A program made the position numbers and the translations under genes. 64,000 bases of DNA from Candidatus Pacearchaeota archaeon (GTDB lineage Archaea > Nanobdellota > Nanobdellia > Pacearchaeales > JAPDKA01), in NCBI GenBank assembly GCA_038817835.1, contig JAWAZI010000002.1:11831-75830 (forward strand), read 5' to 3'. Of this stretch, positions 14,745 to 50,144 are shown piece by piece (within the stretch, counting starts at the first letter, position 1; every line of letters starts with the position of its first letter). Under the pieces are notes generated by a model. The model ran no database searches, was not told the origin of the DNA, and saw only the letters and a program-made list of their open reading frames with translations.

Positions 14745-14816
14745 GGCGGCAGTAGTTTAATGGTAGAATGCCAGGCTGTGGCCCTGGAGGAGCGGGTTCG
14801 ATTCCCGCCTGCCGCC
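14745..14816 (+). tRNA. tRNA-His (anticodon GTG) with genomically encoded G-1
   Basis: Sequence G-GCGGCAG...CCAGGCTGTGGCCCTGG...GCGGGTTCGATTCCCGC-CTGCCGC-C. The extra 5' G pairs with discriminator C. No CCA is encoded. Confidence 0.9.
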
Positions 14817-14824
14817 CTAAAAAA

Positions 14825-16771
14825 ATGAACTTTGAAGAATTAACTGAATTGTATAAAGATTTAGAGAAAACAACAAAAAGATTAGAGAAAACTTTCATAT
14901 TAGCTAAATTTCTAAAAAAAATAAAAGAATTATATATAGAAAAAAAGATAGATGAAAAAGAAGTTAAATATACATTATATTTAGCTCAAGGGACAGTTTA
15001 TCCAGCATATAGTGAAGAGGAAATAGGAATTAGTGAAAATTTATTAATAAAAGCTATAGCTAAAGCAACTGGTATAAATGAAGAAATAATAAAAGAAAAA
15101 TGGAAAGAAATTGGAGATCTTGGAAAAGTTGCAGAAAATTTGATAAAAGAAAAAAAACAAACAACACTATTTAAAACTAAATTAACAATTACAAAAGTTG
15201 CAGAAAATTTGATAAAAGCATCAAAACTTGAAGGAGAAGGAAGCATAGATAAAAAAATTTCTCTTGTTACTGAATTATTAATAGCAGCTAATCCAATTGA
15301 AGGTAAATATGTTGCAAGAATTATACTAAATGAATTACGTATAGGGGTAGCTACTGGAATATTAAGAGATGCTATAGTATATGCAACTATGCCATTGCCG
15401 ATTCCTTTATTTATATTTTGTGAAAATTGTAAAGAATTTGTTCCATTATATGATTATTGTGTTTCATGCAAAAAAGAAATAAACAAAAAAGAATGGGAAA
15501 TAGCAACAGAAATTGAAAAAAAATTGAATAGAATAATAAAAGAAAATAAACTTAATATTGTTATAGGAAAAGACATAATTATTTTTTCATCTCTTGAAGA
15601 AGCTAGAAAAAAATTTAACGAATTTGTTGAATTAATACAACATAGCTATGATGTTACAAGTGATTTTGGGGAAGTTTTTTTAAAAGCAATAAAAGGAATT
15701 CAAGAGATAGAAAAAGTTGAAATTATTCCTGGAAAACCTATAAAAGTAATGTTAGCACTAAAAGCAAATAGTATATCTGAAGCTTTCGAAAAAGTTGGTA
15801 AACCTGCTCAAATAGAATTCAAATATGATGGATTTAGAGTTTTAATTCATAAAACAAATGAAGGAAAAATAAAAATTTTTACAAGAAGACTTGATGATGT
15901 AACAAAACAATTTCCAGAGATAGTCGATTATGTAAAAAAATTTGTAAAAGGTGATAGTTTTATAATTGATGGTGAAGCGGTTGGTTATGATCCAAAAACA
16001 AAAAAGTATAAACCATTTCAAGAAATAAGTCATAGAATAAAGAGAAAATATGATATAGAAAAATTAGCAAAAGAGCTTCCTGTTGAAGTTAATGTTTTTG
16101 ATATACTTTATTATAATGGAAAATCTTTAATTGATAAACCATTAAAGGAAAGAAGAAAATTATTAGAAAAAATAGTTACTCCAGTAAAATGGAAAATTGT
16201 ATTAGCAAAAAAATTAGTAACTGATAATGAAGATGAAGTTGAAAAATTTTATAATGAAGCATTAAATTTAGGAGAAGAAGGAATAATGCTAAAAAATCTG
16301 AATGCTCCTTATAAACCTGGAGCAAGAGTTGGATATATGATAAAATTAAAACCTAGTGAAACAACTTTAGATTTAGTAATTGTTGGTGCAGAATGGGGTA
16401 CAGGAAAGAGAGCTGGCTGGCTATCAAGTTTTATTCTCGCTTGTTATGATCCTGAAAAAAGAACTTTTTTAACTATAGGAAAAGTAGGAACAGGAATAAA
16501 AGAAAAATCTGAAGAAGGATTAAGTTTTGAAGAACTAACAAAATTGTTAAAACCATTAATAATAGAAGAAAAAGGAAGAGAAGTAAAAATAAAACCTGAA
16601 GTTGTTGTAGAAGTTATATATCAAGAAATTCAAAAAAGCCCAACATATGAAAGTGGTTATGCATTAAGATTTCCAAGAATATTAAGAATGAGACCTGATA
16701 AATCTATATATGAAGCTGATACTATAGAAACTATAAAAAAACTTTATAAAGAACAATTCGAAAAAAAATAA
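14825..16771 (+). CDS. lig: ATP-dependent DNA ligase (archaeal Lig) with internal 4-Cys insertion
   Basis: Start set at MNFEELTELYKDLEKT, because the track ORF start at 14768 runs through tRNA-His. Contains the adenylation motif EFKYDGFRV, plus EGIMLK, LKPS..TLDLVIVGAEWG.GKR and FPRILRMRPDK. Confidence 0.92.
   Translation: MNFEELTELYKDLEKTTKRLEKTFILAKFLKKIKELYIEKKIDEKEVKYTLYLAQGTVYPAYSEEEIGISENLLIKAIAKATGINEEIIKEKWKEIGDLGKVAENLIKEKKQTTLFKTKLTITKVAENLIKASKLEGEGSIDKKISLVTELLIAANPIEGKYVARIILNELRIGVATGILRDAIVYATMPLPIPLFIFCENCKEFVPLYDYCVSCKKEINKKEWEIATEIEKKLNRIIKENKLNIVIGKDIIIFSSLEEARKKFNEFVELIQHSYDVTSDFGEVFLKAIKGIQEIEKVEIIPGKPIKVMLALKANSISEAFEKVGKPAQIEFKYDGFRVLIHKTNEGKIKIFTRRLDDVTKQFPEIVDYVKKFVKGDSFIIDGEAVGYDPKTKKYKPFQEISHRIKRKYDIEKLAKELPVEVNVFDILYYNGKSLIDKPLKERRKLLEKIVTPVKWKIVLAKKLVTDNEDEVEKFYNEALNLGEEGIMLKNLNAPYKPGARVGYMIKLKPSETTLDLVIVGAEWGTGKRAGWLSSFILACYDPEKRTFLTIGKVGTGIKEKSEEGLSFEELTKLLKPLIIEEKGREVKIKPEVVVEVIYQEIQKSPTYESGYALRFPRILRMRPDKSIYEADTIETIKKLYKEQFEKK
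15124..15218 (+). repeat. exact 26-nt in-frame direct repeat inside lig (15124-15149 and 15193-15218)
   Basis: AAAAGTTGCAGAAAATTTGATAAAAG occurs twice, 69 nt (23 codons) apart. It encodes KVAENLIK twice. Confidence 0.9.
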
Positions 16772-18203: not shown

Positions 18204-18890
18204 TTATTTTCGTGAAACCCAAGGATTATTTTTTATATAAAAACGCCACAAAAAATCCTTACATTCCATAGCATAATCTATGCCTATTCTTTTTGCAGCA
18301 ACTATTTGGCTTTTTTTTATTTTTTCCCCATTTGTTATCCATACACGATCACTTTTACATAAATCTTCTCCATAAAAAGTTGAATCAAGTTTAAAATTTT
18401 TACAAAAAAGTCCAGGTCCTTTAGAGCCGGGAAAATTAAAAATAGGTTCTGCTGCTCTTATTAATACACATTCTCCATTTCCTTCTTTAGATGTTGTAAT
18501 ATTACATTGATAATAATTACCGTAAATTAAATAAATATATATATGACCTCCTTCTAGATATTCAGCAATATTTCTATAAGTTATCTTTCCTTTTCCTTCT
18601 AGCAATTTTTTAATAAAATTTTCTTTATTATTAACATATTTACTTATCCTTGGAAAGGCTATTTTAAGTATTTTTAATTTTTCTCTTAAGGATTGTGGCC
18701 TCTTAGCATAGCTATGAGATGCTTTATCATATGGTCCAATATAAGCTTCTGTCTCAACGATTTTTCCGACCATTAATTTGCCTTTATAGTTTCTAACAAA
18801 AAATTTTCCTAATAAAGCTTTAGCTACTTTTAATGTATCTTGCATATAAAAACTTTTACTTAACCTAACTTCAAAGTTATTAGTTAACAT
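18204..18890 (-). CDS. mpg: DNA-3-methyladenine glycosylase (MPG/AAG family)
   Basis: 228 aa. Contains IVETEAYIGPYDKASHSY, GGHIYIYLIYG and CVLIRAAEP. A roughly 35-aa insertion appears between the ASH block and the YRN block. Confidence 0.7.
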   Translation of the reverse strand: MLTNNFEVRLSKSFYMQDTLKVAKALLGKFFVRNYKGKLMVGKIVETEAYIGPYDKASHSYAKRPQSLREKLKILKIAFPRISKYVNNKENFIKKLLEGKGKITYRNIAEYLEGGHIYIYLIYGNYYQCNITTSKEGNGECVLIRAAEPIFNFPGSKGPGLFCKNFKLDSTFYGEDLCKSDRVWITNGEKIKKSQIVAAKRIGIDYAMECKDFLWRFYIKNNPWVSRK

Positions 18891-18992: not shown

Positions 18993-19778
18993 ATGAAAAT
19001 AAAAAACATTAAATCTATTGAGAAATTTTTTTATGAAAATCCTGAAAGTTTAAAAATAATAAAAGGAATAGAAGAAAAAGATTTAATTAAAAAAATAATC
19101 GAAAAAATAGAAAAAAATAGAATTAAAAATCTAGATGATATTATAAATGAAATAGAAAATTATAACAATAAAAAAAATATTTTAAATTTCTTTTCTTTTT
19201 GTTTAAAATTTTTATTTTCATTTTATATTTTAACATCAGATCCAAAATCATTTTATGATCCTAAAATAGAAATAGAAAAAAAATTGAATAATATAGATAG
19301 TAAAAATAAAATAGTTAAAAAAATAGAATTTGAGAATTATTTTGATTATTTAATCATCACATCAAAATTTGGGGAAAAGAGAATTTATGGTGGAACTACA
19401 AAAGGTAAACATCTAGGAATAGACCTAATTCCAACAAAAATAGAAGATAGATATATAAAAGCTTTTATGGATGGAAAAGTTTTTTATAAAGGAAGGGGAA
19501 AAGAATATGGAAATTTTATAATTACAGAACATAATTTAGATACAGTATTTTTATATTCCCTTCATGCACATTGTGGAAAGATATATGTAAATAAAAATGA
19601 TACAATAGAAAAAGGTAAAAAAATTGCTTATATGTGGAAAAGTGGAAAAGCGAGAGGAATTCATATGCATTGGGAAATAAGAAAAAGTAAAAATAAAATA
19701 AACAATATAGAAGAATATAAAAAATTAAATCCCATTGATCCTTTAAAAGTAATAGAAAAATTAAAAAATAATTTTTAG
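18993..19778 (+). CDS. membrane-anchored M23 family metallopeptidase (lysostaphin/LytM-like)
   Basis: 261 aa. An internal signal-anchor (FFSFCLKFLFSFYILT) is followed by the M23 motifs HLGIDL (HxxxD) and HMHWEI (HxH), with SLHAH in between. Confidence 0.7.
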   Translation: MKIKNIKSIEKFFYENPESLKIIKGIEEKDLIKKIIEKIEKNRIKNLDDIINEIENYNNKKNILNFFSFCLKFLFSFYILTSDPKSFYDPKIEIEKKLNNIDSKNKIVKKIEFENYFDYLIITSKFGEKRIYGGTTKGKHLGIDLIPTKIEDRYIKAFMDGKVFYKGRGKEYGNFIITEHNLDTVFLYSLHAHCGKIYVNKNDTIEKGKKIAYMWKSGKARGIHMHWEIRKSKNKINNIEEYKKLNPIDPLKVIEKLKNNF

Positions 19779-20441: not shown

Positions 20442-22442
20442 ATGGAAGAAAAAATTTTAATTGAAGCAAAAGCCTTTATAGAGAATTATAAAAAAGAAAT
20501 AATAAAACAAATAAAAAAAGGTAAAAAAAGTGTAATAATTCCTTTTAATGAAATTAGTGAATTTAGTCACGAATTAGCAGAATATATATTAGAAAATCCT
20601 GAAGAAGCATTAGCAACTTTAGGTTTTATTTTAGATGAGATGGATATTGGGAAAAATATAAAAATAAGATTAATAAATTTGCCAAAAAGTCAAGAAATAA
20701 ATATAAGAGAAATAAGAAGTAAACATATAAATAAATTAATTGTTTGTGAAGGAATTGTAAGGCAAAGTTCTGATGTAAGACCTGAAGTTATTAATGCTTT
20801 ATTTGAATGTCCAAGTTGTGGAAATAAAATAAATGTATTACAGCTAGAAAAAAAATTTAGAGAGCCATCAAGATGTAGTAATTGTGGAAGAAAAAAAGGT
20901 TTTAAAATTATCAGCAAAGAATTTGTAGATGCACAAAGAATAGTAATCGAAGAAAATCCTGAATCTCTGATAGGTGGTGAACAACCTAGACGTTTAAGTG
21001 TTTTTTTGAAAGAAGATCTCGTAGAACCAAAAATGGAAGAAAAAACAACACCTGGAAGTAGAGTAAAAGTTATAGGAATAATTAAAGAAGTACCAATTTC
21101 ATTGAGGACTGGTGCTACAAGTACAAAATATGATTTAATAATGGAAGCAAATAATATAATACCACTCGAGGAAAGATTTGAAGAAATAGAAATAAGTGAA
21201 GAAGAAGAAAAAGAAATTATTGAATTTGCTAAATCCCCAGATGTATATGAAAAAATAGTTAAAAATATTGCCCCAAGCATTTATGGCTATGAAGAAATAA
21301 AATTAGCTTTAGCTTTACAATTATTTGGTGGAGTAAGAAAAAGAAAAAGTGACGGAACATATACAAGAGGAGATATACATATATTACTTGTTGGTGATCC
21401 TGGAGTCGCAAAATCTGTTATATTAAAATTTATAGCCTCAATAGCTCCAAGAGGAAGATATGTTGTTGGAAAAGCTGCAACTGGAGCTGGAATAACTGCT
21501 ACAGTAGTAAAAGATGAATTCTTACATGGATGGAGTTTAGAAGCAGGAGCAATGGTATTAGCAAACAAAGGAATAGTATGTATAGATGAATTAGAAAAAA
21601 TGAATGATGCTGACAGAAGCGCTATGCATGAAGGAATGGAACAACAAACTATAACTATAAGTAAAGCTAATGTACAAGCAACTCTAAGAGCAGAAACATC
21701 AGTACTTGCAGCAGCTAATCCTAAATTTGGAAGATTTGATCCATATCAAAACATAACAGAACAAATAGATCTACCACCAACTTTACTTAATAGATTTGAT
21801 CTAATATTTGTTTTAAGAGATTTGCCAGATAAAGAAAAAGATGGTGCAATTGCTGAACATGTTTTAAGAGAGCATTCACTAAGAAAAAAAACATCTTTTA
21901 GTCCTGAATTTTTAAGAAAATATATTGCATATGCAAAACAAAAAATAAAACCAAAATTAACAAATGAAGCAATAGAAGAAATTAAGAGTTTTTATGTAAA
22001 TTTAAGAAATATGCCAACTACAGCCGATGAAATAATAAAACCAATACCAATATCGGCTAGACAATTAGAAGCTTTGATAAGATTAAGTGAAGCTAGTGCA
22101 AAAATAAGATTAAGTAATAAAGTAACAAAGGAAGATGCTCAAAGAGCAATAGGACTAATTAAATATATGCTGCACCAAATCGGTATAGATCAAGAAACAG
22201 GACAAATAGATATCGACAAAATAATAACAGGTATCCCTGCAAGTGAAAGAGCTAAAATTTTATTATTGAGAGAAACTATAAATAAGCTTGAATCTAGATT
22301 AGGAAAGACTATTCCTATAAAAGAGATAAAAAAAGAACTAGAAGGGAGGATTAATGAAGATGAAATTGATGAAATAATAGATAAATTAAAAAGAAGTGGT
22401 GATATCTATGAACCAAAAAAAGGATATATTGAAAAAATATGA
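20442..22442 (+). CDS. mcm: MCM replicative helicase
   Basis: 666 aa. Has the Zn motif CPSCGN...CSNCGR, Walker A GDPGVAKS, Walker B CIDELEKM, the arginine finger SRFDLIF-like NRFDLIF, and a C-terminal winged helix. Confidence 0.95.
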   Translation: MEEKILIEAKAFIENYKKEIIKQIKKGKKSVIIPFNEISEFSHELAEYILENPEEALATLGFILDEMDIGKNIKIRLINLPKSQEINIREIRSKHINKLIVCEGIVRQSSDVRPEVINALFECPSCGNKINVLQLEKKFREPSRCSNCGRKKGFKIISKEFVDAQRIVIEENPESLIGGEQPRRLSVFLKEDLVEPKMEEKTTPGSRVKVIGIIKEVPISLRTGATSTKYDLIMEANNIIPLEERFEEIEISEEEEKEIIEFAKSPDVYEKIVKNIAPSIYGYEEIKLALALQLFGGVRKRKSDGTYTRGDIHILLVGDPGVAKSVILKFIASIAPRGRYVVGKAATGAGITATVVKDEFLHGWSLEAGAMVLANKGIVCIDELEKMNDADRSAMHEGMEQQTITISKANVQATLRAETSVLAAANPKFGRFDPYQNITEQIDLPPTLLNRFDLIFVLRDLPDKEKDGAIAEHVLREHSLRKKTSFSPEFLRKYIAYAKQKIKPKLTNEAIEEIKSFYVNLRNMPTTADEIIKPIPISARQLEALIRLSEASAKIRLSNKVTKEDAQRAIGLIKYMLHQIGIDQETGQIDIDKIITGIPASERAKILLLRETINKLESRLGKTIPIKEIKKELEGRINEDEIDEIIDKLKRSGDIYEPKKGYIEKI

Positions 22443-29322: not shown

Positions 29323-29568
29323 TCAAAGAAATTTAAAAATTATCCAGATTAAAAAGAAAACAATAAATAAAATAATAAATAAAAATAAAGCTAATAAAAT
29401 AGCTTTTTTGCTTGTTCCAAAAGCAAAAGGAATAAATCCAATTATTCCAACAACTCCAACTTCTGCTTTTGAAGTTGAATTTAAATTTTTTATTACATAA
29501 ATTAAAATCATAAATATTGATAAAATAAAAAATAATATTGCTAAAATTAAAAAAATTTCAGATTTCAT
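29323..29568 (-). CDS. small membrane protein (3 TM), last gene of the long minus-strand block
   Basis: 81 aa. ATGA overlap with the upstream 461-aa gene. Confidence 0.5.
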   Translation of the reverse strand: MKSEIFLILAILFFILSIFMILIYVIKNLNSTSKAEVGVVGIIGFIPFAFGTSKKAILLALFLFIILFIVFFLIWIIFKFL

Positions 29569-30950
29569 ATTGATTTATATGGGCTTGGATGACCTGGCAT
29601 ATCTCTAGATTTTTTAAATGTATTATATATACTAAAGCACAAATCTTTAATCTCTTCCTCAACTAAACCTCTCAAATATTTCTCATAATAATTTTCTTTA
29701 TTTATTTCTTTTACATCTCTCAATATTTTTTCTTTCTTTTCTTTTACCTCTTTCTTTTCTTTTCCCTTAAATATATTAATCAAATCTGTAATTATTCCCT
29801 GCTTCAGAGTTGATTTTTTTTCTTTAATTTCTTCCTTTTTTTCTTCTAAAAATTTTTTTAGATCTTCTTCCATAATTTTAAGCGATTCTTCAGTTAAATC
29901 TGTAAAAAGTTTAATTACTTCCTCAAATTCTGATTTTTCCAATTCTTTTTTAAAAAAATTAAATTGATCTTCATTAAGAACATATGCTTTAAAATTTAAA
30001 TCTACTCTACCTGTAAAAATATAAAATTCTTGTTTTCTAATATCTGTATGGGGAATGGATCTAAAATTAAAATCTATAAAAATAAGACCATAAAAATTTC
30101 TAATTTTTTTCTTTTTAAAATATTCTTTTAATTCCTTTGGTAAAATATTTATATCATATTTTTTAAAACATTGTAAAAGTAAATTCAAAATTATAGTTGA
30201 AAATATAGAAACTAAAGAAGCTTCTTTAGTTTCTTTTTCTAATAATCCTTCTGCAGCTCTCAAATAAGGTTTTAACCATCTAGAATAAAGTTTTAAACTA
30301 GCTACTTGACTCTTTAAATAATTTTTCTCTAATTTATATCTATTTCTTAATTCAACTTCACTTAATTGTAGCCATTGATTAAATTCAGATAATCTACTAA
30401 GTAATAACCTTCTTACTCTATCATTTAAATCAAGTTTATAAACATCATCAATAGTTTTTGCTGCAAAAAATGCATCTCTCAAAGTTACAAATTCTAATGA
30501 TCTTGTTAATTCATTTATAGATCCCCTTCCCTTCTGAGCATCAACAAAAGTTATCCATATTTCTTTTAAAGCATTTAATGCTCCTTCTCTCTCTATAGGA
30601 TTTTTACTCTTTAATTTATCATATAAGCTTAATCTTATTTCAAATTGTTTTAAATCGTAAATTAAATTTATTATACTCTTTACAATTTGGTTAATATAAC
30701 CTAAATAACTTATAACTTTTTCTTGCATTATACCTGCTTTTCTACCAAGTTCTGAAGAATAACCACCTCCAGGAGAAGTTGCAAAATTATCAATAAGTTT
30801 CTCAACATTAAAACCCAAATTTCTAGTAAAATCTAAAATCCAATAATATATAGGTTCAAGCTGCTGAAATGGAGAATCATAAGTCAATTTAAATTCTGCA
30901 AGTGGTTCTTTAATTTCTAATTTCTCTAATATTTTTTTTATTTCTTCCAT
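29565..30950 (-). CDS. hypothetical 461-aa protein with K/E-rich coiled-coil C-terminal third
   Basis: No recognisable family. Separated by 1 nt from the Zn-ribbon gene upstream. Confidence 0.6.
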   Translation of the reverse strand: MEEIKKILEKLEIKEPLAEFKLTYDSPFQQLEPIYYWILDFTRNLGFNVEKLIDNFATSPGGGYSSELGRKAGIMQEKVISYLGYINQIVKSIINLIYDLKQFEIRLSLYDKLKSKNPIEREGALNALKEIWITFVDAQKGRGSINELTRSLEFVTLRDAFFAAKTIDDVYKLDLNDRVRRLLLSRLSEFNQWLQLSEVELRNRYKLEKNYLKSQVASLKLYSRWLKPYLRAAEGLLEKETKEASLVSIFSTIILNLLLQCFKKYDINILPKELKEYFKKKKIRNFYGLIFIDFNFRSIPHTDIRKQEFYIFTGRVDLNFKAYVLNEDQFNFFKKELEKSEFEEVIKLFTDLTEESLKIMEEDLKKFLEEKKEEIKEKKSTLKQGIITDLINIFKGKEKKEVKEKKEKILRDVKEINKENYYEKYLRGLVEEEIKDLCFSIYNTFKKSRDMPGHPSPYKSI

Positions 30951-30951
30951 T

Positions 30952-31305
30952 TTATTTTCTCATTAACTCAAATGTAGAAGCTAAATCAATGATATATTTT
31001 CCTTCTTCTATTTTAAAGATAATTGGATTTTTCTTAAATAATTTAACTAAATCTATCTCAAATTTTCCTGGTTTTATTGCTCTTATTGATTCTAAATCTA
31101 AAATTACAGGAGTTTCTTCTGGAATTTTTATTATTTCTTTTATTTCTTTCTCAATTTCCTTCACTTCTTCTTGAGTTAAATTTATTATTTCCTCTTTTGG
31201 CTTCTCCTTAAAAAAATAAAAAAATTTACTACCACATTTACATCCTTTTAATATTACATTTGATTCTTCATATATCCTTCCACATCTAACACATTCATAA
31301 GGCAT
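30952..31305 (-). CDS. Zn-ribbon protein (COG3364-like, OapC-like)
   Basis: 117 aa. The N-terminus is MPYECVRCGRIYEE....LKGCKCGSKFFYF. Confidence 0.65.
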   Translation of the reverse strand: MPYECVRCGRIYEESNVILKGCKCGSKFFYFFKEKPKEEIINLTQEEVKEIEKEIKEIIKIPEETPVILDLESIRAIKPGKFEIDLVKLFKKNPIIFKIEEGKYIIDLASTFELMRK

Positions 31306-31336
31306 AAAAAAGAAAATAAAAACATATTTAAATATT

Positions 31337-31720
31337 TTATATTTTCAGATATAATTCAAGTTTACTAATATCTTTTTTTATTTCCCTTACAATTGTCGCT
31401 GGACCAATTATAGTAATCATATCCCTATCTCCAACCAAAGCATCAGCAAGTTTTTTTCTTAATTTACCAAATATATTATCTTCTGGTTTTGGTACTAAAG
31501 TTGCAATCTCAATTCCTTTAAAATTTTTTCTTTTTCCTATATTAACCATAGTTTCCTCTATTAAATCTGCTTCTTCATCATGACTCAATTTTCCTTGTAA
31601 AATAATTATTTTATTTTCCTTTATATTATCGAGTAAAAATTTAACTCTCTTATAACTTGAAAGATTTTCTATTTTTGAAAATGGTATAAACTGAATTTTT
31701 ATACCTTTTATTTTTTTCAT
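31337..31720 (-). CDS. DUF2073-like protein (OapB-like)
   Basis: 127 aa. Contains LSSYKRVKFLLDNIKENKIIILQGKLSHDEEADLIEETM..I......FKGIEI, which matches my memory of the DUF2073 consensus. Confidence 0.6.
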   Translation of the reverse strand: MKKIKGIKIQFIPFSKIENLSSYKRVKFLLDNIKENKIIILQGKLSHDEEADLIEETMVNIGKRKNFKGIEIATLVPKPEDNIFGKLRKKLADALVGDRDMITIIGPATIVREIKKDISKLELYLKI

Positions 31721-32373
31721 TTTCTCTTTATTTTAGATTTTTTAATTAAATTAAATAAAGTCTCATAAAATTCTTCCATATTTTTGCCATATTTAGCTGA
31801 AATACCAACAACATCATATTCAGGAAATGCTGCTTCTATTGCTTTTAAATTTGCTCTCTTTAAATCAATTTTATTTGCTACAATCATTAAAGGAATTTTT
31901 CTAGCAGCTATATTACCTATAATTGTAATATTTACTTGACTATAAGGATTCTCGCATGCATCTAAAACTACAATTATAACATCCATATCATCTATCCATT
32001 TTATAGCCTCTATAACTCCTCTTGTTGCTTCTTTTGCTCTTTTTCTTGCTTCTGATTTACTTAAACCATAACGTAAAAAATTCTCATAATCAATTTTAGT
32101 TGTTATTCCTGGAGTATCAACAATTTTAAAATTTAAACTTTTTCCTTTATGTGTAATTTTTACACCTTCTTTTATTGTTATCTCTCTTGTCTCATGTGGT
32201 ATATTACTTACTTTTCCAATCTCTTCACCAATCCAATCTTTACATATTCTATTTGCTAAAGTAGTTTTTCCTGCATTTGGAGGACCATAAAAACCTAATT
32301 TTAATTCTCTCTTTACTGAAAATATATTATTAAAAATTCTTTGAAAAAAATTTGTAATAATTCTTATAACCAT
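31717..32373 (-). CDS. small GTP-binding protein (OapA-like archaeal GTPase)
   Basis: 218 aa. G1 is GPPNAGKTTL, G3 is DTPG and G4 is NKID, with SAK near the end. Confidence 0.8.
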   Translation of the reverse strand: MVIRIITNFFQRIFNNIFSVKRELKLGFYGPPNAGKTTLANRICKDWIGEEIGKVSNIPHETREITIKEGVKITHKGKSLNFKIVDTPGITTKIDYENFLRYGLSKSEARKRAKEATRGVIEAIKWIDDMDVIIVVLDACENPYSQVNITIIGNIAARKIPLMIVANKIDLKRANLKAIEAAFPEYDVVGISAKYGKNMEEFYETLFNLIKKSKIKRK

Positions 32374-32375
32374 TT

Positions 32376-34916
32376 TTATCTAATTTTTAAAGTCTTTTTA
32401 ACTTTTTTTATTATATAATCTACTTGCTGTTTTTTCCATCCAGCATTTAAAAGTTGTTGTCTTATCTCATTTTCTTTTTTTCCACTTTTTAAAGAGTTTG
32501 AAACAAAATTAAATAAATTATAATAATCCGCAGCATATGGGAAAAGTTTTTTCTCTTTTTCTTTTTGTTTTATTTTTAAATTTTTAATAATATGTGGGGC
32601 CCAAATTATAATTAAACCTATAATAACCAATATTATTAAGATTATTGAGATAAATAATAAAGGACTTTTTCTTTTTTCATATAATTCTGGTTCTCCATAT
32701 ATTTCTTCACATTCTATTTCATCTATATTATTTGGTGTAGCATAAATATTTACTTCATAAGGAATTATCTCATCATTGTATGCAATTTCTACTGAAGTAG
32801 TATTAAAGCTTATAGCATTTCCTAAATCATTAAAGTTTTTATATGAGTAAATGTCTGAAGATGGTAATTCAACAATTATATTTCCATTATTAATTAAAGA
32901 TAAATAAATAACAGTTATTTTCTTTGTTTCACCATTATAAAATATTATATTTACTATTTTTCCTGAAATTTTTAGTTTTTTATTATTCCATAAAGCTAAA
33001 CTTTTTTTACACGAATCACTATCACAATTGCAATTTCCTAAAATTCTCTCAACATTATCTAAATTTATTTTTTCCCAATTAACAATATAAGTAATCTGTG
33101 GATAATTTGAAATCATTATATTTTTTGGTATTTTATTTTTTAAATTATCAAATTCATTTTTTATTGAATCTAAATCTCCACCAGAAGATAAATTTACTAA
33201 TAACTCTCTAAGTTTATTTTTAGTTTCATTAAGCTCAATTAAATCTATTAGCCAAGATTTATAAAATTCTCCACTTAAATTATTTTCAAAATTTTTGATA
33301 TCATTAATAGCTTTATTCAATGAAGAATTTAATGTATCTTTATCAATACCAACTACTATCTCAAATCCTCTAACTCCAAAAAAATTTTTTTCATCAACTA
33401 CTTTAACAGTTACTAAATATTTTCCAGAATTAGAATATTTATGCTCAAAAATACCATTAGAATTACTTTCTATTGAAGATCCATCACCCCAGTTAACTTC
33501 ATAGTTAATTATATTCCCATTTGGAGAATATGCAATTATTCTAAATTCAGTTTCTTCATTAACAATTACCTTGTTTGGAATTATAGCTGCAATAATAGGA
33601 ACATCTTCTACATAAAATGTTTCAGTTGCTATCAAATAATTATCAAAATAAATTTTTAAAGTATAATTGCCTTTAATACGAGGTGCAGTTAAATTAAAAA
33701 CTTCTAAAGGAATAGATATAAAACCTTTACTATCTACTTTAGGATATTCTACACCAATTTCACTAAATTTATCTAAAAGTAAAGAAGTTCCTCCAGAAAC
33801 AAATCTCAAGTTTAGATCTTTCAAATTAAATCTTTGAGTTGAGTTTATAAATAACGGAATAATACAACCATTACTACAATTATTGTTATATTTTGAATTT
33901 ATATAGTTATTTATATCATTAATCAAATTTTTCTTTGTTTGCTCAAAATAAACTGAAGAATTAAAATTTACATCACCAATTAATCCTCTATTTTTATATT
34001 CTGCAATAAATAAACCATAATGTGATCCGCTATATTGAATTAAAAAAGTATCACTAACATCAGCTCTTACACAAACCTCATAATTTCCTTCTTCTACAAA
34101 AACATCTATATCACAACTAACATAGCTATAATCTCCGCTATAATCTGTAGTATTACATTCTTTAACTATGCCATGTGGTGTTTTTATCTTAAAAAATATA
34201 GTTCCTAGTTGTGAAAAATTTTTTAACTTTATAATACCTCCAACTTTTACTTTACCAGCTGTATATTTTAATGTTATATTATCACAATATTCTTGAGTAG
34301 TTAATATTGCATCATAATTATAACTGAAATTAGTTGGAAACTTAAGTGAACAATTAGAATCTGAAGGATTAATATATAAGTAATCTATACTACCATCAAT
34401 AAAAAGATCTATAATTAAAGGAATATTCCCACATGAATCTTGTTGATTATTTTCTCCACTAATAACAAAACTTAAATCTTGAACATTTACATTTTCTCCA
34501 TTAAGATTAAAACCAATAAATTTTTCTCCAGAGCCACTAATATTTTCATTTGTACTTTTAACATAAAAAACTTTATCACAAGTAACTTTTATATTATTAT
34601 ACCAGCAATCATAATTAATGTTAGTTTTATTCAAAATTTCTAAAATCTTTAATATAGAGTATTTCCCAGTTCCTAATATCTCTGCTTTTATTTTTGATTG
34701 AGAAGAATCATTTTTCAAACTTATATTAAGATATCCATTTATTAATTGATTAGCTCCAACAGGATTAACTATTAACTTTGGATTACCAATTTCATAGGCA
34801 GATACATTTACTAAAAAAATAAAAAAAATTAAAAAAACAAACTTCAACCCCTTTTTCATTAAAAATATTTTAAAAAACATAATTAAAAATTTTTCTTTTC
34901 TAAATTTTCTCTTCAA
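32376..34916 (-). CDS. large surface protein with PKD domain, C-terminal TM anchor and short cytoplasmic tail
   Basis: 846 aa by the track. The signal-peptide-like start MKKGLKFVFLIFFIFLVNVSA at 34859 is more likely. The PKD block is YEVNWGDGSS...HKYSNSGKYLVTVKVVDEKN. The TM is LLFISIILIILVIIGLIIIW, followed by a basic tail. Confidence 0.7.
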   Translation of the reverse strand: MKRKFRKEKFLIMFFKIFLMKKGLKFVFLIFFIFLVNVSAYEIGNPKLIVNPVGANQLINGYLNISLKNDSSQSKIKAEILGTGKYSILKILEILNKTNINYDCWYNNIKVTCDKVFYVKSTNENISGSGEKFIGFNLNGENVNVQDLSFVISGENNQQDSCGNIPLIIDLFIDGSIDYLYINPSDSNCSLKFPTNFSYNYDAILTTQEYCDNITLKYTAGKVKVGGIIKLKNFSQLGTIFFKIKTPHGIVKECNTTDYSGDYSYVSCDIDVFVEEGNYEVCVRADVSDTFLIQYSGSHYGLFIAEYKNRGLIGDVNFNSSVYFEQTKKNLINDINNYINSKYNNNCSNGCIIPLFINSTQRFNLKDLNLRFVSGGTSLLLDKFSEIGVEYPKVDSKGFISIPLEVFNLTAPRIKGNYTLKIYFDNYLIATETFYVEDVPIIAAIIPNKVIVNEETEFRIIAYSPNGNIINYEVNWGDGSSIESNSNGIFEHKYSNSGKYLVTVKVVDEKNFFGVRGFEIVVGIDKDTLNSSLNKAINDIKNFENNLSGEFYKSWLIDLIELNETKNKLRELLVNLSSGGDLDSIKNEFDNLKNKIPKNIMISNYPQITYIVNWEKINLDNVERILGNCNCDSDSCKKSLALWNNKKLKISGKIVNIIFYNGETKKITVIYLSLINNGNIIVELPSSDIYSYKNFNDLGNAISFNTTSVEIAYNDEIIPYEVNIYATPNNIDEIECEEIYGEPELYEKRKSPLLFISIILIILVIIGLIIIWAPHIIKNLKIKQKEKEKKLFPYAADYYNLFNFVSNSLKSGKKENEIRQQLLNAGWKKQQVDYIIKKVKKTLKIR

Positions 34917-35979
34917 TTAAATTTTTCTTTTCCTCCTTCCACAATCTCAACAAATTACTTTTAAATCTATCTAAATCCTCTATTTTCATAGATGCCCCTA
35001 AAGCACAATCATGACCACCAGCACTAGCATTTTCTATACCATTAATAGCTTTAATAACAATATCCCTAATTTTATATCTACTTCTTATTGATATTTTAGC
35101 TGTATCTCCTTTTAAATATGCAACAACAATTATTTTATTTGGATATTTATAAAGCAATGCATTAGAGATTTCAGCAGAAATACTTAAATTACCACCATAT
35201 TGAAAAAATAATATTTCGTGTTTAGCAAAATTTTCAGCTTTTTCTATTAATTTTGAAAATTTTTTATAAATATAATTAAATCTTTTGTGAATTCCTTTAT
35301 TTTTTTCATTTATTTCTAATATTTCATAGGGTGTTTCAACTTTAGATAAAAATTTTAGCATTTTTGTTATATTTGTTGTTGTATCTTTTAAACCAAAGTT
35401 TAATATTTGAATTATTTTTCCAAAAGAAGTTTCATATAATATTTTTGAAACATCTTCAGTTTTTCCAATTTCAAATAAATCTTTATATTCATTATAAATT
35501 TGATCAAAATATTCTGGAATAAACCAATCTGATATACATCCTAAACCTGCAATCCAAAGATATTTTTTGTTTTCTATTAACTCATAAACCCAATAAGTTG
35601 TTGGTTTACTTATCCCTTTAAGAATAGTAGGATTAAATAATATTCTAACATTCTGATCAAAATATTCTAACATATTTATATCTTTATGATGATCAATCCA
35701 AACAAAATGATAATTTTTATCTTTTATATAATCAAGAAAAAGTTTTGAAATTTTTGGTTTATCTAAAACAAAGATACTATCAGGATTTATTTCTTCTATT
35801 TTTCTTATATAATTAAAACTTAATTCAGGAAAAGTTTTTATTGCGACTCCTTTTCCTTTTTCATAAGTTTTTTTAAATAATAAAAAAGATGCTAAACCAT
35901 CAACATCATTATCAAAAAAATATAATGGATTAGAAGAGTTCATTAAAATTTCTTTTATTTTTTTAATTATATCACTCAT
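34900..35979 (-). CDS. stand-alone DHH/DHHA1 phosphoesterase (NrnA/DhhP-like; RecJ/GAN-like is the alternative)
   Basis: 359 aa. Contains motif I DNDVDGLAS, DHH motif WIDHHKD, and DHHA1 motif SAGGHDCALGA. Confidence 0.75.
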   Translation of the reverse strand: MSDIIKKIKEILMNSSNPLYFFDNDVDGLASFLLFKKTYEKGKGVAIKTFPELSFNYIRKIEEINPDSIFVLDKPKISKLFLDYIKDKNYHFVWIDHHKDINMLEYFDQNVRILFNPTILKGISKPTTYWVYELIENKKYLWIAGLGCISDWFIPEYFDQIYNEYKDLFEIGKTEDVSKILYETSFGKIIQILNFGLKDTTTNITKMLKFLSKVETPYEILEINEKNKGIHKRFNYIYKKFSKLIEKAENFAKHEILFFQYGGNLSISAEISNALLYKYPNKIIVVAYLKGDTAKISIRSRYKIRDIVIKAINGIENASAGGHDCALGASMKIEDLDRFKSNLLRLWKEEKKNLIEEKI

Positions 35980-36983
35980 AATGAAGAAAAAAATTCTTTT
36001 ATTTTTTTTGCCTTTTTTTCTTTTATTCCTTTCTCTATAAAATCATTAATATCAGCTTCTATTATATTTTTCAAATTTCCAAAATTTTTTATTATTAATT
36101 CTCTTTCATTTTCATTAATAATATAAATTTTTTTTAGTAACCTATATCCTAAAGGAGTTAAATGATCAACAAGTTTATTTGATTCAAACAATTTTATTAT
36201 AAATTTGGGAGATATAATTTCATGATAGTCTGCTTTATTTAATGCTTCTTCTATATTATCAAAATTTATTTGATTATGATAATCTCTTTTTATTGATTCT
36301 ATCTCTTCATTTATAAAATTTTTAATTTCTTCAAATTGAAATTTTATAGTTCTTCCTTCTACTCCAAGTTCAGCCAAATAAAGTAAAAGTATATCAGAGA
36401 TATAGTCAAATATTTTTTTTCTTTGAAATATATTTGCTATATCTTCTATATTAACTATATCCAAAATTTCAGCTGTATTTAAATGTTTTACTAATTTTTC
36501 AAAGTTTTCTCTATGTCTATCTAAAACAGAAAAAGTTTCTCTTGCTTTAATTAAAAGATCACTTATATAATTTAATCTTAATTTTTTATTTCCATAATAT
36601 ACTGTTGCTATTTTGGTTTTCTCTGAAATAGCTAAAACAATTGCATTAAATTGTTTAGCAGTTCTCTCAGCAGCTTGATGTCTTGTTCCAGTTTCCTCAC
36701 TAACTATTCTTGAATTTGGAGTAAGCAAAACATTAGCATAAACAATTTTATCATCTTTAACAATTATTGCTCCATCAAGTTTTGCTAATTCTACTAATAA
36801 TTCTTCTGTCAATTTTTTATTTACTTTAAAACCCCCTTTACATATCTTCGTTATTTTTTTAAAATTATTATTATCTGCAAAAACTATTAGTGCTCCTCTA
36901 TAAGCACGAGTAATTTTCTCTATAGCATTTCTTAATATACTCCCATAAGAAAACATTTCTAAAATTTTTAATTTTGTTTCCAT
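35976..36983 (-). CDS. disA: DisA-type diadenylate cyclase (DAC domain + helical linker + C-terminal HhH)
   Basis: 335 aa. Collinear with bacterial DisA: GALIVF, ELAKLDGAIIV (DGA), ETGTRHQAAERTAKQ (RHR motif present as RHQ), VLAISEKT, PLGYRLLKKI, and a C-terminal HhH-like ...IIEADINDFIEKGIKEKKAKKIKEF. Confidence 0.8.
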   Translation of the reverse strand: METKLKILEMFSYGSILRNAIEKITRAYRGALIVFADNNNFKKITKICKGGFKVNKKLTEELLVELAKLDGAIIVKDDKIVYANVLLTPNSRIVSEETGTRHQAAERTAKQFNAIVLAISEKTKIATVYYGNKKLRLNYISDLLIKARETFSVLDRHRENFEKLVKHLNTAEILDIVNIEDIANIFQRKKIFDYISDILLLYLAELGVEGRTIKFQFEEIKNFINEEIESIKRDYHNQINFDNIEEALNKADYHEIISPKFIIKLFESNKLVDHLTPLGYRLLKKIYIINENERELIIKNFGNLKNIIEADINDFIEKGIKEKKAKKIKEFFSSL

Positions 36984-38011
36984 CTTTCTTTTAATTTTTT
37001 TAATATTATTTTTTCTTCATCAGCCCCAATAACTAAAACATAAGGTTTTTCATTATTTAAATATTTTTCATTTCTAATATTCTTCATTTTATCAATTTTA
37101 ACTTTTAAAAATTTCATTATTTTTTCCCTAACTGGCCAAGAGTTTTCTCCTATACCACCACTAAAAACAAATGCATCAATATCTTCAAAATTAATCAAAT
37201 AGCTAGAAGCTATTTTTGCTATTGAATAACAAAAAATATTAAAAGCAAAATTATATTTTTTATTTTTATTTCTAAGCATTATTATTTTCTCAAATTTTTT
37301 TGTATTAGCTAAAGCTAGAATGCCGGAATTATTTAAAATTTTCTCAGTATTTTTTATTCCAATTTTTTTTATTAAAAATAAAACAATACCAGGATCGATT
37401 GAACCAGATCTATTTATCATTATACTTCCTTCAAAAGGGGTAAATCCCATACTTGTTTCAATTGGCTTAAAATTTTTTATGGCAGTAATGCTACATCCTG
37501 CTCCTAAATGAAAAATTATTGCATTTTTCAAGTTTTCTTTTTTTAACTCTTCTATAATATTTTCAACATTAAGTCCATGAAAACCATATCTATAAATTTT
37601 ATATTTTTTTATAATTTTAGTTGGCAATGCATAAATTTTACTAATTAATGGTAAATCAAGAAAAATATCACTATCAAAAGCAATAAATTGTTTCAATTTT
37701 GGAAATTCCTTTTTTATTATTTTTATAACTTTTAATTGAAAAGGATTATGTAAAGGTGCTAATGGAATTGCATTAGCAATATTGTTTAATATTTTTTTAT
37801 TTAAAAAATTACTTTTACTTCCATAACCATGAACTACTCTATGAGCAACAACATCTATTTTTTTAAATTCTTTTTCAGCTTTTTTAAATATATTTAAAAT
37901 TAAATTTTTATTTGGTTTTGCATAAATTATTTCTTTATTTATTATCTCAAAATCTTTAAAGAATGAATATTTTATTGTTTCACTTCCTACATTAAAAATA
38001 ATACCTTTCAT
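36968..38011 (-). CDS. ackA: acetate/propionate kinase family protein (compact AckA)
   Basis: 347 aa. Signature blocks appear in order: FNVGSETIKY, HRVVHGYG, PLAPLHNP, YRYGFHGLN, FHLGAGCSITA, ETSMGFTPFEG, SGSIDPG, FSGGIGENS. Confidence 0.75.
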   Translation of the reverse strand: MKGIIFNVGSETIKYSFFKDFEIINKEIIYAKPNKNLILNIFKKAEKEFKKIDVVAHRVVHGYGSKSNFLNKKILNNIANAIPLAPLHNPFQLKVIKIIKKEFPKLKQFIAFDSDIFLDLPLISKIYALPTKIIKKYKIYRYGFHGLNVENIIEELKKENLKNAIIFHLGAGCSITAIKNFKPIETSMGFTPFEGSIMINRSGSIDPGIVLFLIKKIGIKNTEKILNNSGILALANTKKFEKIIMLRNKNKKYNFAFNIFCYSIAKIASSYLINFEDIDAFVFSGGIGENSWPVREKIMKFLKVKIDKMKNIRNEKYLNNEKPYVLVIGADEEKIILKKLKERWKQN

Positions 38012-38013
38012 AA

Positions 38014-38406
38014 TTAAATCAAACCTAATTCTTCCATCTTTTTAAAAATATAAATTTTTTCACATATATTTAAATTATATTTTTTTAATTCTTCATAAAT
38101 ATCTTCTGAAATATATGAAGAACAAAATAAAATATTAGTGTATTTATTTTTTTCACTTTTTCTTATGATATCAACAAGTTTTAAACCTGAATTCTTATAA
38201 CCATCATTCAAATTATTATCTGTAATAATATAATAAAATTTTATATTATTTATTATTTCTTTTGCTTCTTCGAAATTATCAGATTCTATTATTTCATATT
38301 TATCTTTAAGCATATTTTTAAGCAAAAATCTAAAAGTTTTGTCGTCATCTATAATCAATATTTTCTCTAAAGGTTTTATACTATCATCAATAATTATTTT
38401 TTTCAT
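38014..38406 (-). CDS. stand-alone response-regulator receiver domain (CheY-like)
   Basis: 130 aa. Has the acidic pocket ILIIDDD and a putative phospho-acceptor Asp in YIITDNNL. No output domain. Confidence 0.7.
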   Translation of the reverse strand: MKKIIIDDSIKPLEKILIIDDDKTFRFLLKNMLKDKYEIIESDNFEEAKEIINNIKFYYIITDNNLNDGYKNSGLKLVDIIRKSEKNKYTNILFCSSYISEDIYEELKKYNLNICEKIYIFKKMEELGLI

Positions 38407-38464
38407 AAAAAATTAAAAAATTTATATATAAAAACTTTTTTAAACCTAAATTTTTTAATTTTTT

Positions 38465-48949: not shown

Positions 48950-49482
48950 GATGTTTTATTGCTATAGATATTCCAAATACTATCAAAGAAGAATTAGAAA
49001 AAATTCAAAAATTTATAATTAATGATATTAAGGCAAAATTTGTTGAAAAAGAAAATATTCATTTAACATTAAAATTTTTAGGAGAGATTAATGATTATAA
49101 AGTTAATTTTGTTATAGAAGAATTAAAAAAATTAAAAATAAAAAAATTTGAAGCTTATTTAAATGGAGTTGGGTTTTTTCCTAATGAAAATTTCATAAGA
49201 GTTTTCTGGATTGGTTTGGAGCCAAAAGAAATTATTGAAAAAATTCATGAAGATATAGATAATGCTTTAAAAAAATATTTCAAAAAAGATAAAAATTTTG
49301 AAAGCCATATAACATTAGCAAGAATAAAGAGTATAAAAAATAAAGAAGATTTTATAAAAAAAATAAAAAATTTAGAAATAAAAAAAACGAAATTTTTAGT
49401 TGAAGAAATAAAATTGAAAAAAAGTATATTAACAAAAGATGGGCCAATTTATAATGATATTTATATTTTTAAATTAGTATAA
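48946..49482 (+). CDS. thpR: RNA 2',3'-cyclic phosphodiesterase (ThpR/LigT, 2H family)
   Basis: 178 aa. Has two HxT/S motifs: HLTLKFLGE and HITLARI. Confidence 0.8.
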   Translation: MRCFIAIDIPNTIKEELEKIQKFIINDIKAKFVEKENIHLTLKFLGEINDYKVNFVIEELKKLKIKKFEAYLNGVGFFPNENFIRVFWIGLEPKEIIEKIHEDIDNALKKYFKKDKNFESHITLARIKSIKNKEDFIKKIKNLEIKKTKFLVEEIKLKKSILTKDGPIYNDIYIFKLV

Positions 49483-50144
49483 GGTATACTTTTTAGTTCT
49501 TCTTTAGTTTTATATTCTGTTTCTAATATCTTTTTTATTTTTCTTGCTTTTTTTTCTCCAAGCTTTTTTACACTCATAAGTTCAGAAATATTGGCATTAA
49601 CAAATGATTTTATTGTTCTAAATTTTTTCAATATTTCTCTTGCTAAAGTTTTTCCAATTCCAGGAAAACTTTCAATAATAAATTCTTGCTGCTCATATAT
49701 TGTATAAAATTTTGGTTTAGATACTAAACTTATCTCTCTAGGTTTTTTCTTTAATCTTTTATATAAAACTTCTAAAAAATTTGCTGTATCAATATAATCT
49801 TTAGTAAAAATTATTGGTATCTTATGTTCTAAAATAATGCTAAGTATTATTCCCCTAATTGCATTATCATTTAGATTTCCTCTTCCATAAATATCTTCTT
49901 CATCAAAACCTTCAAGAATAATTAATTTATTTTCAAATTCGGTTTCTTTTAAATTTATAACTTGTTTTATTAATCTCTTATTTATCATGCTTGCTATAAA
50001 ATCTGATATAGTTTTTCTTTCTATTATAATATTTCCAATTATATAATCTCCAATACTCAAAATATCTTCTTTAACATTAATACCCTTAGCTTTTAATTCT
50101 GAAATTATTAAACTATTTTTTTCTCTTTTATCAGCTATAATCAT
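49461..50144 (-). CDS. short XPF/Hef-type ERCC4 nuclease with C-terminal (HhH)2
   Basis: 227 aa. Contains ADKREK...GDYII...IERKTISDF (the ERCC4 GDxn-ERKx3D signature) and an HhH-like GIGKTLAREILKKF. Confidence 0.8.
   Translation of the reverse strand: MIIADKREKNSLIISELKAKGINVKEDILSIGDYIIGNIIIERKTISDFIASMINKRLIKQVINLKETEFENKLIILEGFDEEDIYGRGNLNDNAIRGIILSIILEHKIPIIFTKDYIDTANFLEVLYKRLKKKPREISLVSKPKFYTIYEQQEFIIESFPGIGKTLAREILKKFRTIKSFVNANISELMSVKKLGEKKARKIKKILETEYKTKEELKSIPYTNLKI

Follow-up and report, generated by a model that had tools for sequence, protein, structure and literature searches.

The conserved unit at the locus described here is a pair of genes, one encoding a DisA-type diadenylate cyclase and the next encoding a compact RecJ-like DHH/DHHA1 phosphoesterase (hereafter the DHH protein). 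The locus lies in a 64-kb stretch of DNA from a Candidatus Pacearchaeota archaeon, which we call the window and in whose coordinates open reading frames (ORFs) are given; in the NCBI taxonomy, Pacearchaeota belong to the kingdom Nanobdellati (DPANN). DisA (335 aa) is encoded at 35976–36983 and the DHH protein (359 aa) at 34900–35979, both on the minus strand, and the two genes share a 4-nt ATGA overlap that was read directly from the sequence. Both are core members of the pair, and DHH also persists where DisA is missing. The original prediction, made from the DNA alone, had joined these genes with a stand-alone receiver (REC) and an acetate kinase (AckA) encoded upstream into a four-gene signalling cassette of cyclic di-AMP (c-di-AMP) and acetyl phosphate. 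The order REC-AckA-DisA-DHH is not a conserved cassette; conservation is confined to DisA with DHH/DHHA1 behind it.

Linkage of DisA and DHH across archaeal genomes

Gene linkage was counted in a species-level survey with one genome per GTDB species, in which more than 508 DisA relatives were found and the best 80 loci were kept; the six-frame ORFs of the surveyed loci were scored with the window proteins. Downstream linkage was assessed in the loci that extend at least 1.5 kb past DisA, 53 of them archaeal and 10 actinobacterial. A DHH gene follows DisA directly, on the same strand and with a gap of at most 300 bp, in 33 of the 53 archaeal loci and in none of the 10 actinobacterial loci. When up to 5 kb downstream is allowed, the archaeal count becomes 45 of 53 and the actinobacterial count stays at 0 of 10. 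AckA, on the other hand, is directly upstream of DisA in 2 of 63 archaeal species-level loci (L018 and L054; labels of the form L0xx and L1xx denote related loci) and in no actinobacterial locus, and REC was found in none of the archaeal or actinobacterial survey loci. The neighbourhood is thus conserved as far as the DisA–DHH pair is concerned, whereas REC and AckA are local additions. Among closer relatives, Pacearchaeota whose DisA is 52–54% identical to that of the window carry the arrangement PpsA ... DisA-DHH-PKD-GTPase-OapB-OapC, with both REC and AckA missing, and the two relatives with a 63% identical DisA (L007 and L171) read PpsA<DUF4870<AckA>DisA>DHH>, with REC missing.

The pair moves as a unit, because it is found in four or more distinct contexts: TFE-rhomboid-SpoIIM-DS-DisA-DHH-ProRS (DS, deoxyhypusine synthase), Nre or HTH-propeller-DisA-DHH-DS, PpsA-(AckA)-DisA-DHH-PKD-Oap, and DisA-DHH-..-PpsA. 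Within it, DHH is the core gene and DisA a variable gene directly upstream of DHH. This follows from the canonical order obtained by neighbour clustering, TFE-alpha > rhomboid > SpoIIM > DS > [OrnDC] > [DisA] > DHH > ProRS < trypsin-like, since the same flanks in exactly this order, minus DisA, are present in at least 10 loci (L116, L119, L121, L126, L131, L139, L143, L147, L149 and L163). A reverse survey covered 80 metagenomic loci anchored on DHH; 34 of these had at least 5 kb of upstream sequence, with DisA present in 17 and directly adjacent in 12. In 21 secure DisA-less loci, the DHH proteins retain each of the 13 motif residues, show no alignment column that discriminates them from 82 DisA-linked proteins, and fall in the same sequence clusters as these. 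For 17 of the 21, the nearest neighbour is DisA-less too, which suggests that the absence of DisA is confined to a few lineages rather than scattered at random.

Whether the two genes are functionally coupled at all can be weighed on the same data. DisA could have been inserted beside a core DHH gene in an ancestor, the adjacency then being kept as inherited synteny in compact genomes. This would be in keeping with DHH neighbours that are the same with or without DisA (DS, ProRS, SpoIIM, rhomboid and TFE), with DHH sequences that are alike in both states, and with the many overlapping adjacent genes of compact DPANN genomes. However, the pair holds while its surroundings change, through the contexts listed above and down to a DisA identity of 37%, and other neighbours, DS for example, switch sides or vanish. 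Since the pair survives several rearrangements, we consider pure inherited synteny improbable.

A clade-wide active-site variant of DisA

The identification of DisA rests on several profiles and on a structural relative. In Pfam, the DAC domain scores 98.9 bits and the DisA-linker 75.9 bits, with a weak match to the helix-hairpin-helix (HhH) domain (HHH_2, 17.3 bits), and the protein passes the NCBIfam equivalog NF010009 at 275.6 against a cutoff of 201. Its residues 7–335 align collinearly with residues 34–370 of T. maritima DisA (3c1y), and its identity to bacterial DisA proteins is ∼31–33%. The alignment to 3c1y also bears out two details of the original prediction, namely that the protein is collinear with bacterial DisA and that its RHR motif is altered. 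Of the canonical catalytic pair, DGA and RHR, only DGA is kept, at D70–A72, while RHR reads RHQ (R101-H102-Q103), in GTRHQAAER as opposed to GTRHRTAER in T. maritima DisA.

The variant is shared widely. Of the 120 best database homologues, 93 carry RHQ, 21 RHK and 2 RHR, and among the species-level archaeal loci the motif reads RHK in 39, RHQ in 20, RHR in 1 and RHI in 1, which puts RHK or RHQ in 59 of 63 loci, whereas all 13 actinobacterial loci have RHR. In an alignment of 28 sequences spanning 35–72% identity, DGA, the Arg-His of the variant motif, S120, K68 and, in the HhH domain, G279, R281 and L283 are invariant. Because of this invariance, the whole protein is under purifying selection, and RH[K/Q] is a clade-wide signature and not local degeneration. 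The published mutants of the RHR motif, in the literature searched, comprise the RHR-to-AAA triple only. We think it likely that RH[K/Q] DisA retains cyclase activity.

The original prediction had called a DisA-type cyclase new for archaea, the characterised archaeal enzymes being of the DacZ type. The second half of that statement agrees with the archaeal c-di-AMP papers searched, in which DisA is treated as bacterial and the archaeal cyclases are of the DacV-DacZ or CdaZ types; a 2025 paper describes dacZ as absent from DPANN and c-di-AMP as restricted to Euryarchaeota. The claim of novelty was overstated, because NCBI already labels proteins as DisA in many Pacearchaeota and Nanoarchaeota metagenome-assembled genomes (MAGs). 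DisA in DPANN is therefore already known to annotation pipelines, and an archaeal DisA-type cyclase appears to be uncharacterised in the literature searched.

Several related loci show departures of their own. One Pacearchaeote encodes a second DAC-domain protein (L173:8365–9009, minus strand) of 214 aa, which has DGA, RHA rather than RHR, SEEE and a membrane segment at its C terminus. DisA-DHH is present in that genome as well (L175), which suggests two cyclase types within one DPANN genome. That the 214-aa protein serves as the cyclase of DisA-less genomes was set aside as speculation, the sole genome that shows it having DisA-DHH too. Four loci filed as bacteria (L023, L056, L068 and L075, under Dojkabacteria, 'bacterium', Gemmatimonadales and Bacillota) have low GC content, an RHK or RHQ DisA and DHH, and their neighbours are archaeal (TFE-alpha, Nre and DS); mis-binning of DPANN contigs probably accounts for them. 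Two related 'archaeon' MAGs (L008:7080–7844 and L017:10990–11772) have, after an RHK DisA and in place of DHH, a 254-aa Lon_C protein with an N-terminal membrane segment. This protein recalls the C-terminal domain of RadA/Sms, which is the classical partner of DisA in bacteria. The restriction to two related MAGs and the membrane segment led us to reject it as a general RadA-like partner of DisA. In a locus from Nanoarchaeia (L005:7011–9067), the genes after DisA encode a LAGLIDADG endonuclease and a group II intron-like reverse transcriptase, with Topo VI near and no DHH, and a mobile element may have disrupted the pair there.

The DHH protein is closest to RecJ-family nucleases

In Pfam, the DHH protein matches DHHA1 at 35 bits and DHH at 22.3 bits, under the cutoff of 28.1. 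All catalytic motifs are nonetheless intact: DNDVDG at 23–28, LDK at 72–74, WIDHH at 94–98, D151 and GGH at 321–323. In an alignment of 30 homologues, D23/D25/D27, D73, D96-H97-H98, D151 and G321-G322-H323 are invariant, and in 103 more sequences the motif residues are retained at 100%, save D23 at 81 of 82. Motif I is of the DxDxDG type, which is the type of bacterial RecJ. The predicted structure (AlphaFold2; pLDDT 94.4, pTM 0.91) fits two domains and a long helical linker into the 359 residues, with neither an OB-fold nor a CID.

A single-sequence phmmer search of the protein against the PDB returned noise only, and the PDB search used a family profile. The profile recovered M. thermautotrophicus RecJ-Cdc45 (7bhi, 2e-8), MjaRecJ2 (7ykv/6tvv, 1e-7), P. 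furiosus RecJ (5x4h, 1e-6) and S. aureus RecJ (8y30, 6e-4), followed by a 'DHH family' entry and an archaeal PAP phosphatase, whereas NrnA, GdpP and Rv2837c gave no match among PDB sequences even at E ≤ 10. The best of the weak NCBIfam matches are likewise RecJ models (TIGR00644 at 49.2 against a cutoff of 396.9, and NF053576 RecJ_archaeal at 26.1 against 360). Foldseek comparison of the model with the PDB ranked RecJ2 (1.8e-16), RecJ-Cdc45 (1.8e-15) and S. aureus RecJ (5e-15, TMq 0.71) highest, with GAN and PfRecJ at ∼1e-14 and T. thermophilus RecJ at ∼1e-12; NrnA/Pde2 (1e-9), B. subtilis NrnA (1e-8), PggH (1e-8) and Cdc45 (1e-8 to 1e-9) were weaker. Sequence identity to any solved structure is 12–17%.

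By profile and by modelled fold, then, the DHH protein largely groups with RecJ2, RecJ-Cdc45, GAN and RecJ, and not with NrnA, Pde2 or GdpP. The original prediction had assigned it to the NrnA/DhhP/Pde2 enzymes and had itself named a grouping with GAN and RecJ-Cdc45 as the outcome that would speak against that assignment. No second RecJ-like ORF was found by the family profile in the window and ∼2 Mb of fetched loci, a sample biased to the same locus; RecJ/Cdc45-family proteins are universal in archaea according to the title of PMC3307487.

Possible readings of the pair: a DNA-integrity module or a c-di-AMP turnover module

We tentatively favour the reading that the pair is a DNA-integrity module of DisA and a RecJ-family nuclease, made of two genes and not four, at a confidence that falls slightly short of even. 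The functional unit would be an archaeal DisA and an immediately downstream, translationally coupled compact RecJ-family DHH/DHHA1 phosphoesterase. Through its DAC, linker and HhH domains, DisA would bind and scan DNA and make c-di-AMP while the DNA is intact, and the DHH protein, as a housekeeping single-strand nucleic-acid exonuclease of RecJ ancestry, would process the single-stranded DNA or branched intermediates sensed by DisA. In bacteria, disA usually shares its operon with radA and not with its phosphodiesterase. DisA-DHH could be the archaeal counterpart of radA-disA, with DisA again co-encoded with a repair partner instead of a phosphodiesterase. The data establish the gene identities, the linkage, the motif signature, the RecJ-like affinity in sequence and fold, and the independence of DHH from DisA; the cyclase activity of the RH[K/Q] variant, the nuclease activity and substrate of the DHH protein, and any physical or functional interaction between the two are predictions. 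The binding of RadA to DisA is cited in a reference list.

An alternative account, which we hold to be possible rather than probable, is that the two genes form a c-di-AMP turnover module, in which DisA would synthesise the messenger and the DHH protein would hydrolyse c-di-AMP to pApA and then AMP, possibly with a nanoRNase-type role as well; the DHH protein would then represent a new RecJ-derived class of phosphodiesterase (PDE). The nearest sequence and fold relatives are at odds with this account, being RecJ and GAN nucleases with NrnA, Pde2, PggH and GdpP 6–7 orders of magnitude weaker or undetected, as are the missing TrkA_N domain, the unchanged state of the enzyme at DisA-less loci, and the bacterial habit of pairing disA with radA. 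Still, cyclase and DHH are strongly linked whatever the context, the catalytic motifs of the DHH protein are intact, and DHH/DHHA1 proteins account for all known stand-alone hydrolases of pApA and c-di-AMP in this size range in bacteria. A dual nanoRNase role, as in M. tuberculosis CnpB, or another cyclase could account for the DHH genes that have no DisA beside them, and the 214-aa membrane DAC is present in at least one Pacearchaeote. The characterised archaeal PDE, PyaPDE, has the architecture TrkA_N-DHH-DHHA1, and a 2023 review, which states that the c-di-AMP-degrading enzymes of archaea are unknown, names DHH-DHHA1 proteins as the candidates. The original prediction had likewise proposed a synthase with its likely hydrolase; the linkage on which that rested is conserved, while the resemblance of the DHH protein to RecJ rather than to NrnA, Pde2 or GdpP counts against the hydrolase.

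Several further points tell against the DNA-integrity module. The archaeal PAP phosphatase 8a8k matches the DHH model about as well as the RecJ cores do (Foldseek 7e-14, TMt 0.74), and a protein with neither OB-fold nor CID is sized like the DHH/DHHA1 enzymes that act on small substrates. Substrate specificity within the DHH superfamily is not readable from fold or architecture, because the P. yayanosii pApase (PyapApase), an archaeal DHH-DHHA1 protein, cleaves neither c-di-AMP, pApA, single-stranded DNA nor single-stranded RNA. About half of the DHH-anchored loci are without a nearby DisA, which fits a core nuclease and equally a nanoRNase-like enzyme that clears pApA too. If DisA makes c-di-AMP, genomes of ∼0.7 Mb need a hydrolase, and the adjacent DHH protein is the obvious candidate; the sole archaeal c-di-AMP PDE to have been characterised is, after all, itself a DHH-DHHA1 protein. 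The two accounts are not exclusive.

AckA and the receiver are lineage-restricted neighbours

In the window, DisA is preceded by AckA, a compact acetate/propionate-family kinase of 347 aa (36968–38011, minus strand) that is a lineage-restricted neighbour outside the widely conserved pair, and AckA in turn by REC, a stand-alone receiver domain protein of 130 aa (38014–38406, minus strand), the first gene of the packed array, lineage-specific and without conserved linkage. The ORFs and junctions, read directly, agree with the original prediction of four packed minus-strand genes: a spacer of 2 nt separates the REC stop from the AckA ATG, and the AckA and DisA genes overlap by 16 nt. HMM scans confirm the predicted domain identities of REC, AckA, DisA and DHH/DHHA1. 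Co-transcription of all four genes is very probable.

The Pfam Acetate_kinase profile matches AckA at 235.7 bits over profile positions 66–391 only, which is why we call it compact; as the start of the match indicates, ∼30 N-proximal residues are missing. Against TIGR00016 it scores 228 bits, below the cutoff of 293, and the NCBI name 'hypothetical protein QXQ30_00530' is consistent with that score; the whole DPANN family of compact AckA may be under-annotated. Alignments to 3khy and 2iir show the catalytic residues kept, except for Asn211, which is Ala. We take the catalytic residues of acetate kinase to be N7, S10, K14, R91, H123, D148, H180, R241 and E384 in M. thermophila numbering.

Compact AckA proteins of 320–350 aa occur as one family across DPANN, with members in Pacearchaeota, Woesearchaeota, Nanoarchaeia and Diapherotrites. 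Elsewhere they stand in the arrangement POR-POR-Pta-HCP-AckA (L173 and L174) or, in the complete 648-kb genome CP070794.1 (L172:5171–8078), in Pta-AckA-DHH-x-DS without DisA; in the latter AckA adjoins DHH itself, and the AckA neighbourhood may be tied to DHH rather than to DisA. From the POR-Pta-HCP-AckA and Pta-AckA arrangements of its relatives, AckA is therefore primarily the ATP-forming end of acetate fermentation and not a dedicated generator of acetyl phosphate. A PTA_PTB domain is absent from all ORFs scanned in the 64-kb window, in line with the original description of an acetate kinase lacking a phosphotransacetylase, although this reflects the limited size of the window, given the Pta genes of relatives. 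AckA lies directly upstream of DisA in five lineages (the window, L007, L171, L018 and L054), with DisA identity down to 37%.

REC matches Pfam Response_reg at 43.6 bits (cutoff 30.2). In the alignment with RR468 and CheY, its acidic DD pair and its acceptor Asp, which lies in IITDNN, line up with theirs; the T/S position falls on a Cys with an adjacent Ser, and the Lys was assigned by eye only. A tblastn search with REC found nothing in 175 related loci totalling 2.0 Mb. The best match among 1.84 billion representative proteins has 38% identity (E = 6e-16), and only two matches reach E ≤ 1e-10; REC is a near-orphan and a lineage-specific addition. The nearest DPANN stand-alone receiver (39% identical, in a Nanoarchaeota MAG) adjoins genes for an amino-acid kinase, TrmB and ribosomal proteins, an unrelated context. 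A degraded receiver gene in the close relatives was considered and rejected, the spacers upstream of AckA in L007 and L171 containing no ORF and giving no tblastn signal. In agreement with the original statement that the 64 kb has no histidine kinase, neither HisKA nor HATPase_c was detected in any scanned ORF of the window, in which a few ORFs are without any Pfam match.

These data bear directly on the four-gene cassette, in which acetyl phosphate made by AckA would phosphorylate the orphan receiver, and REC, DisA and a DHH hydrolase would act as one signalling unit. The tight junctions of the array speak for it, as do the retained DD pair and acceptor Asp of the receiver, the catalytic residues of AckA, and the recurrence of AckA-DisA-DHH in L007, L171, L018 and L054 over DisA identities from 63% to 37%. 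There is also a precedent for acetyl phosphate acting at DisA: acetylation of K66 inactivates S. erythraea DisA, with a link to acetyl phosphate (Fu et al. 2024, PMC11323494). In 12 actinobacterial DisA proteins, the 45 residues before DGA hold a single conserved Lys, that of ELAK-x-DGA, which corresponds to the invariant archaeal K68, and it is plausible from this alignment that K66 and K68 are the same residue. That mapping is, however, itself inferred; REC is a near-orphan that occurs at no other locus, including L007 and L171, which have AckA-DisA-DHH; AckA precedes DisA in few species-level loci and elsewhere stands in POR-Pta-HCP-AckA or Pta-AckA-DHH; and the AckA of fermenters consumes acetyl phosphate in vivo. 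With REC at 0 of 175 loci, and AckA upstream of DisA confined to L007, L171 and 2 of the 63 species-level loci, we regard a conserved cassette of this kind as highly improbable; since the four genes are very probably co-transcribed, it may still be a local elaboration.

Within the DNA-integrity module that we favour, AckA, having moved upstream of DisA in a subclade, might secondarily couple acetyl-phosphate or ATP status to DisA, which is conceivable because the Lys of ELAK-x-DGA is conserved, and the receiver would be a lineage-specific add-on. The same Lys enters a further alternative that we consider unlikely, a DisA-based c-di-AMP checkpoint of DNA integrity in DPANN of the Pacearchaeota/Woesearchaeota type. 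It would combine an RH[K/Q] cyclase with a mini-RecJ acting as a new RecJ-derived c-di-AMP/pApA phosphodiesterase or as a bifunctional enzyme, and in the window lineage it would be tuned by acetyl phosphate through AckA and Lys68. If it were true, c-di-AMP signalling would extend beyond Euryarchaeota, and the missing archaeal hydrolase would be identified.

Genomic setting of the array

The host is archaeal by the gene content of the window, as the original prediction had it: the domain scan identified an MCM whose winged helix is archaeal, a ThrRS carrying the editing domain specific to archaea, an ATP-dependent DNA ligase, FtsZ, OapB and OapC. The products of the four genes have 100% identical counterparts in a MAG named 'Candidatus Pacearchaeota archaeon'. 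GC content is ∼22% across the whole window. A 58-nt spacer upstream of REC (38407–38464, minus strand), common to the divergent DUF4870 gene, is a candidate promoter of the array, containing a TATA-like TTTATATA ∼20–27 nt 5′ of the REC ATG as read from the sequence; in a genome of 22% GC, this assignment is possible and an inference only.

Downstream of DHH, the next gene encodes an 846-aa PKD-domain membrane protein, whose proposed TTG start overlaps DHH; an alternative ATG 36 nt further on is equally plausible. It opens a run of co-directional genes (29565–34916, minus strand) with a small GTPase (31717–32373), OapB (31337–31720), OapC (30952–31305) and a 461-aa protein that has no Pfam match. 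This block of Oap ('origin-associated protein') genes adjoins DisA-DHH also in L011, L012 and L018, and in L007 and L171 it is inverted and on the opposite side of PpsA. No Orc1/Cdc6 gene was seen near it. The window is rich in other replication and repair genes, none of them beside DisA; they encode an XPF/ERCC4-HhH nuclease (49461–50144, minus strand), a methylpurine-DNA glycosylase (18204–18890, minus strand), the ATP-dependent ligase (14768–16771, plus strand) and MCM (20442–22442, plus strand). Three genes of bacterial envelope type are also present, all on the plus strand, for an N-acetylmuramoyl-L-alanine amidase (Amidase_2, 58326–59372), a Peptidase_M23 protein (18993–19778) and a PlsY-type glycerol-3-phosphate acyltransferase domain (4890–6107), and these are possibly linked to an episymbiotic lifestyle or to horizontal transfer.

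At gathering thresholds, Rfam detected six tRNAs in the window and neither a c-di-AMP riboswitch nor another RNA. PADLOC gave zero matches for the four proteins and two neighbours, and with the DS2_3_antiphage NCBIfam match to DisA at only E 4e-4 and 18.8 bits, against a cutoff of 630, a reading of the array as a defence system was rejected.

Significance and comparison with known systems

Three points are not described in the literature searched: the RH[K/Q] variant shared across the clade, the conserved placing of a mini-RecJ beside DisA, and the presence or absence of DisA beside a core DHH gene. Archaeal c-di-AMP has so far been studied via the DacZ/CdaZ-type cyclases of Euryarchaeota only. 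A large DPANN clade of DisA with its own active-site signature and a RecJ-like partner suggests a different c-di-AMP route in ultra-small symbiotic archaea, possibly tied to replication or repair and not to osmoregulation. The locus reveals no four-component signalling cassette.

With bacterial DisA (T. maritima 3C1Y, B. subtilis, M. tuberculosis Rv3586), the window protein shares the collinear DAC-linker-HhH organisation, DGA, Arg-His and the conserved Lys before DGA; it differs in the third RHR residue, Arg in bacteria and Gln or Lys in 59 of the 63 archaeal loci. As in bacterial radA-disA, the operon partner of DisA has its ancestry in DNA repair, although it is here a RecJ-like DHH protein and not RadA/Sms, and the host is a DPANN archaeon. 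Actinobacterial DisA resembles that of the window in its metabolic acetyl-phosphate node and in the conserved Lys of ELAK-x-DGA, whereas its regulation involves non-enzymatic acetylation and the DasR repressor, with no AckA adjacency and no receiver (PMC11323494).

For the DHH protein, the archaeal RecJ family (MjaRecJ2 7YKV/6TVV, RecJ-Cdc45 7BHI, GAN 5GHT/7E15 and PfRecJ 5X4H) and the bacterial RecJ core (1IR6 and 8Y30) provide the best profile and fold matches and have in common with it the DHH motifs I–IV, with motif I of the DxDxDG type, the DHHA1 GGH and the long inter-domain helix. Compared with archaeal RecJs, it is ∼100 residues shorter, has no CID insertion or OB fold and scores far below the NCBIfam RecJ cutoffs. 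What it shares with NrnA, Pde2, DhhP, CnpB (Rv2837c), GdpP and P. yayanosii PyaPDE is the two-domain DHH/DHHA1 architecture, a size like that of NrnA and Pde2, and the genomic association with a cyclase, while TrkA_N, PAS or GGDEF modules are missing. The window AckA, finally, belongs to the same compact family as the AckA proteins of DPANN POR-Pta-AckA operons, to which it is 43–47% identical, and differs from them in being parted from POR and Pta and placed between a receiver gene and DisA.

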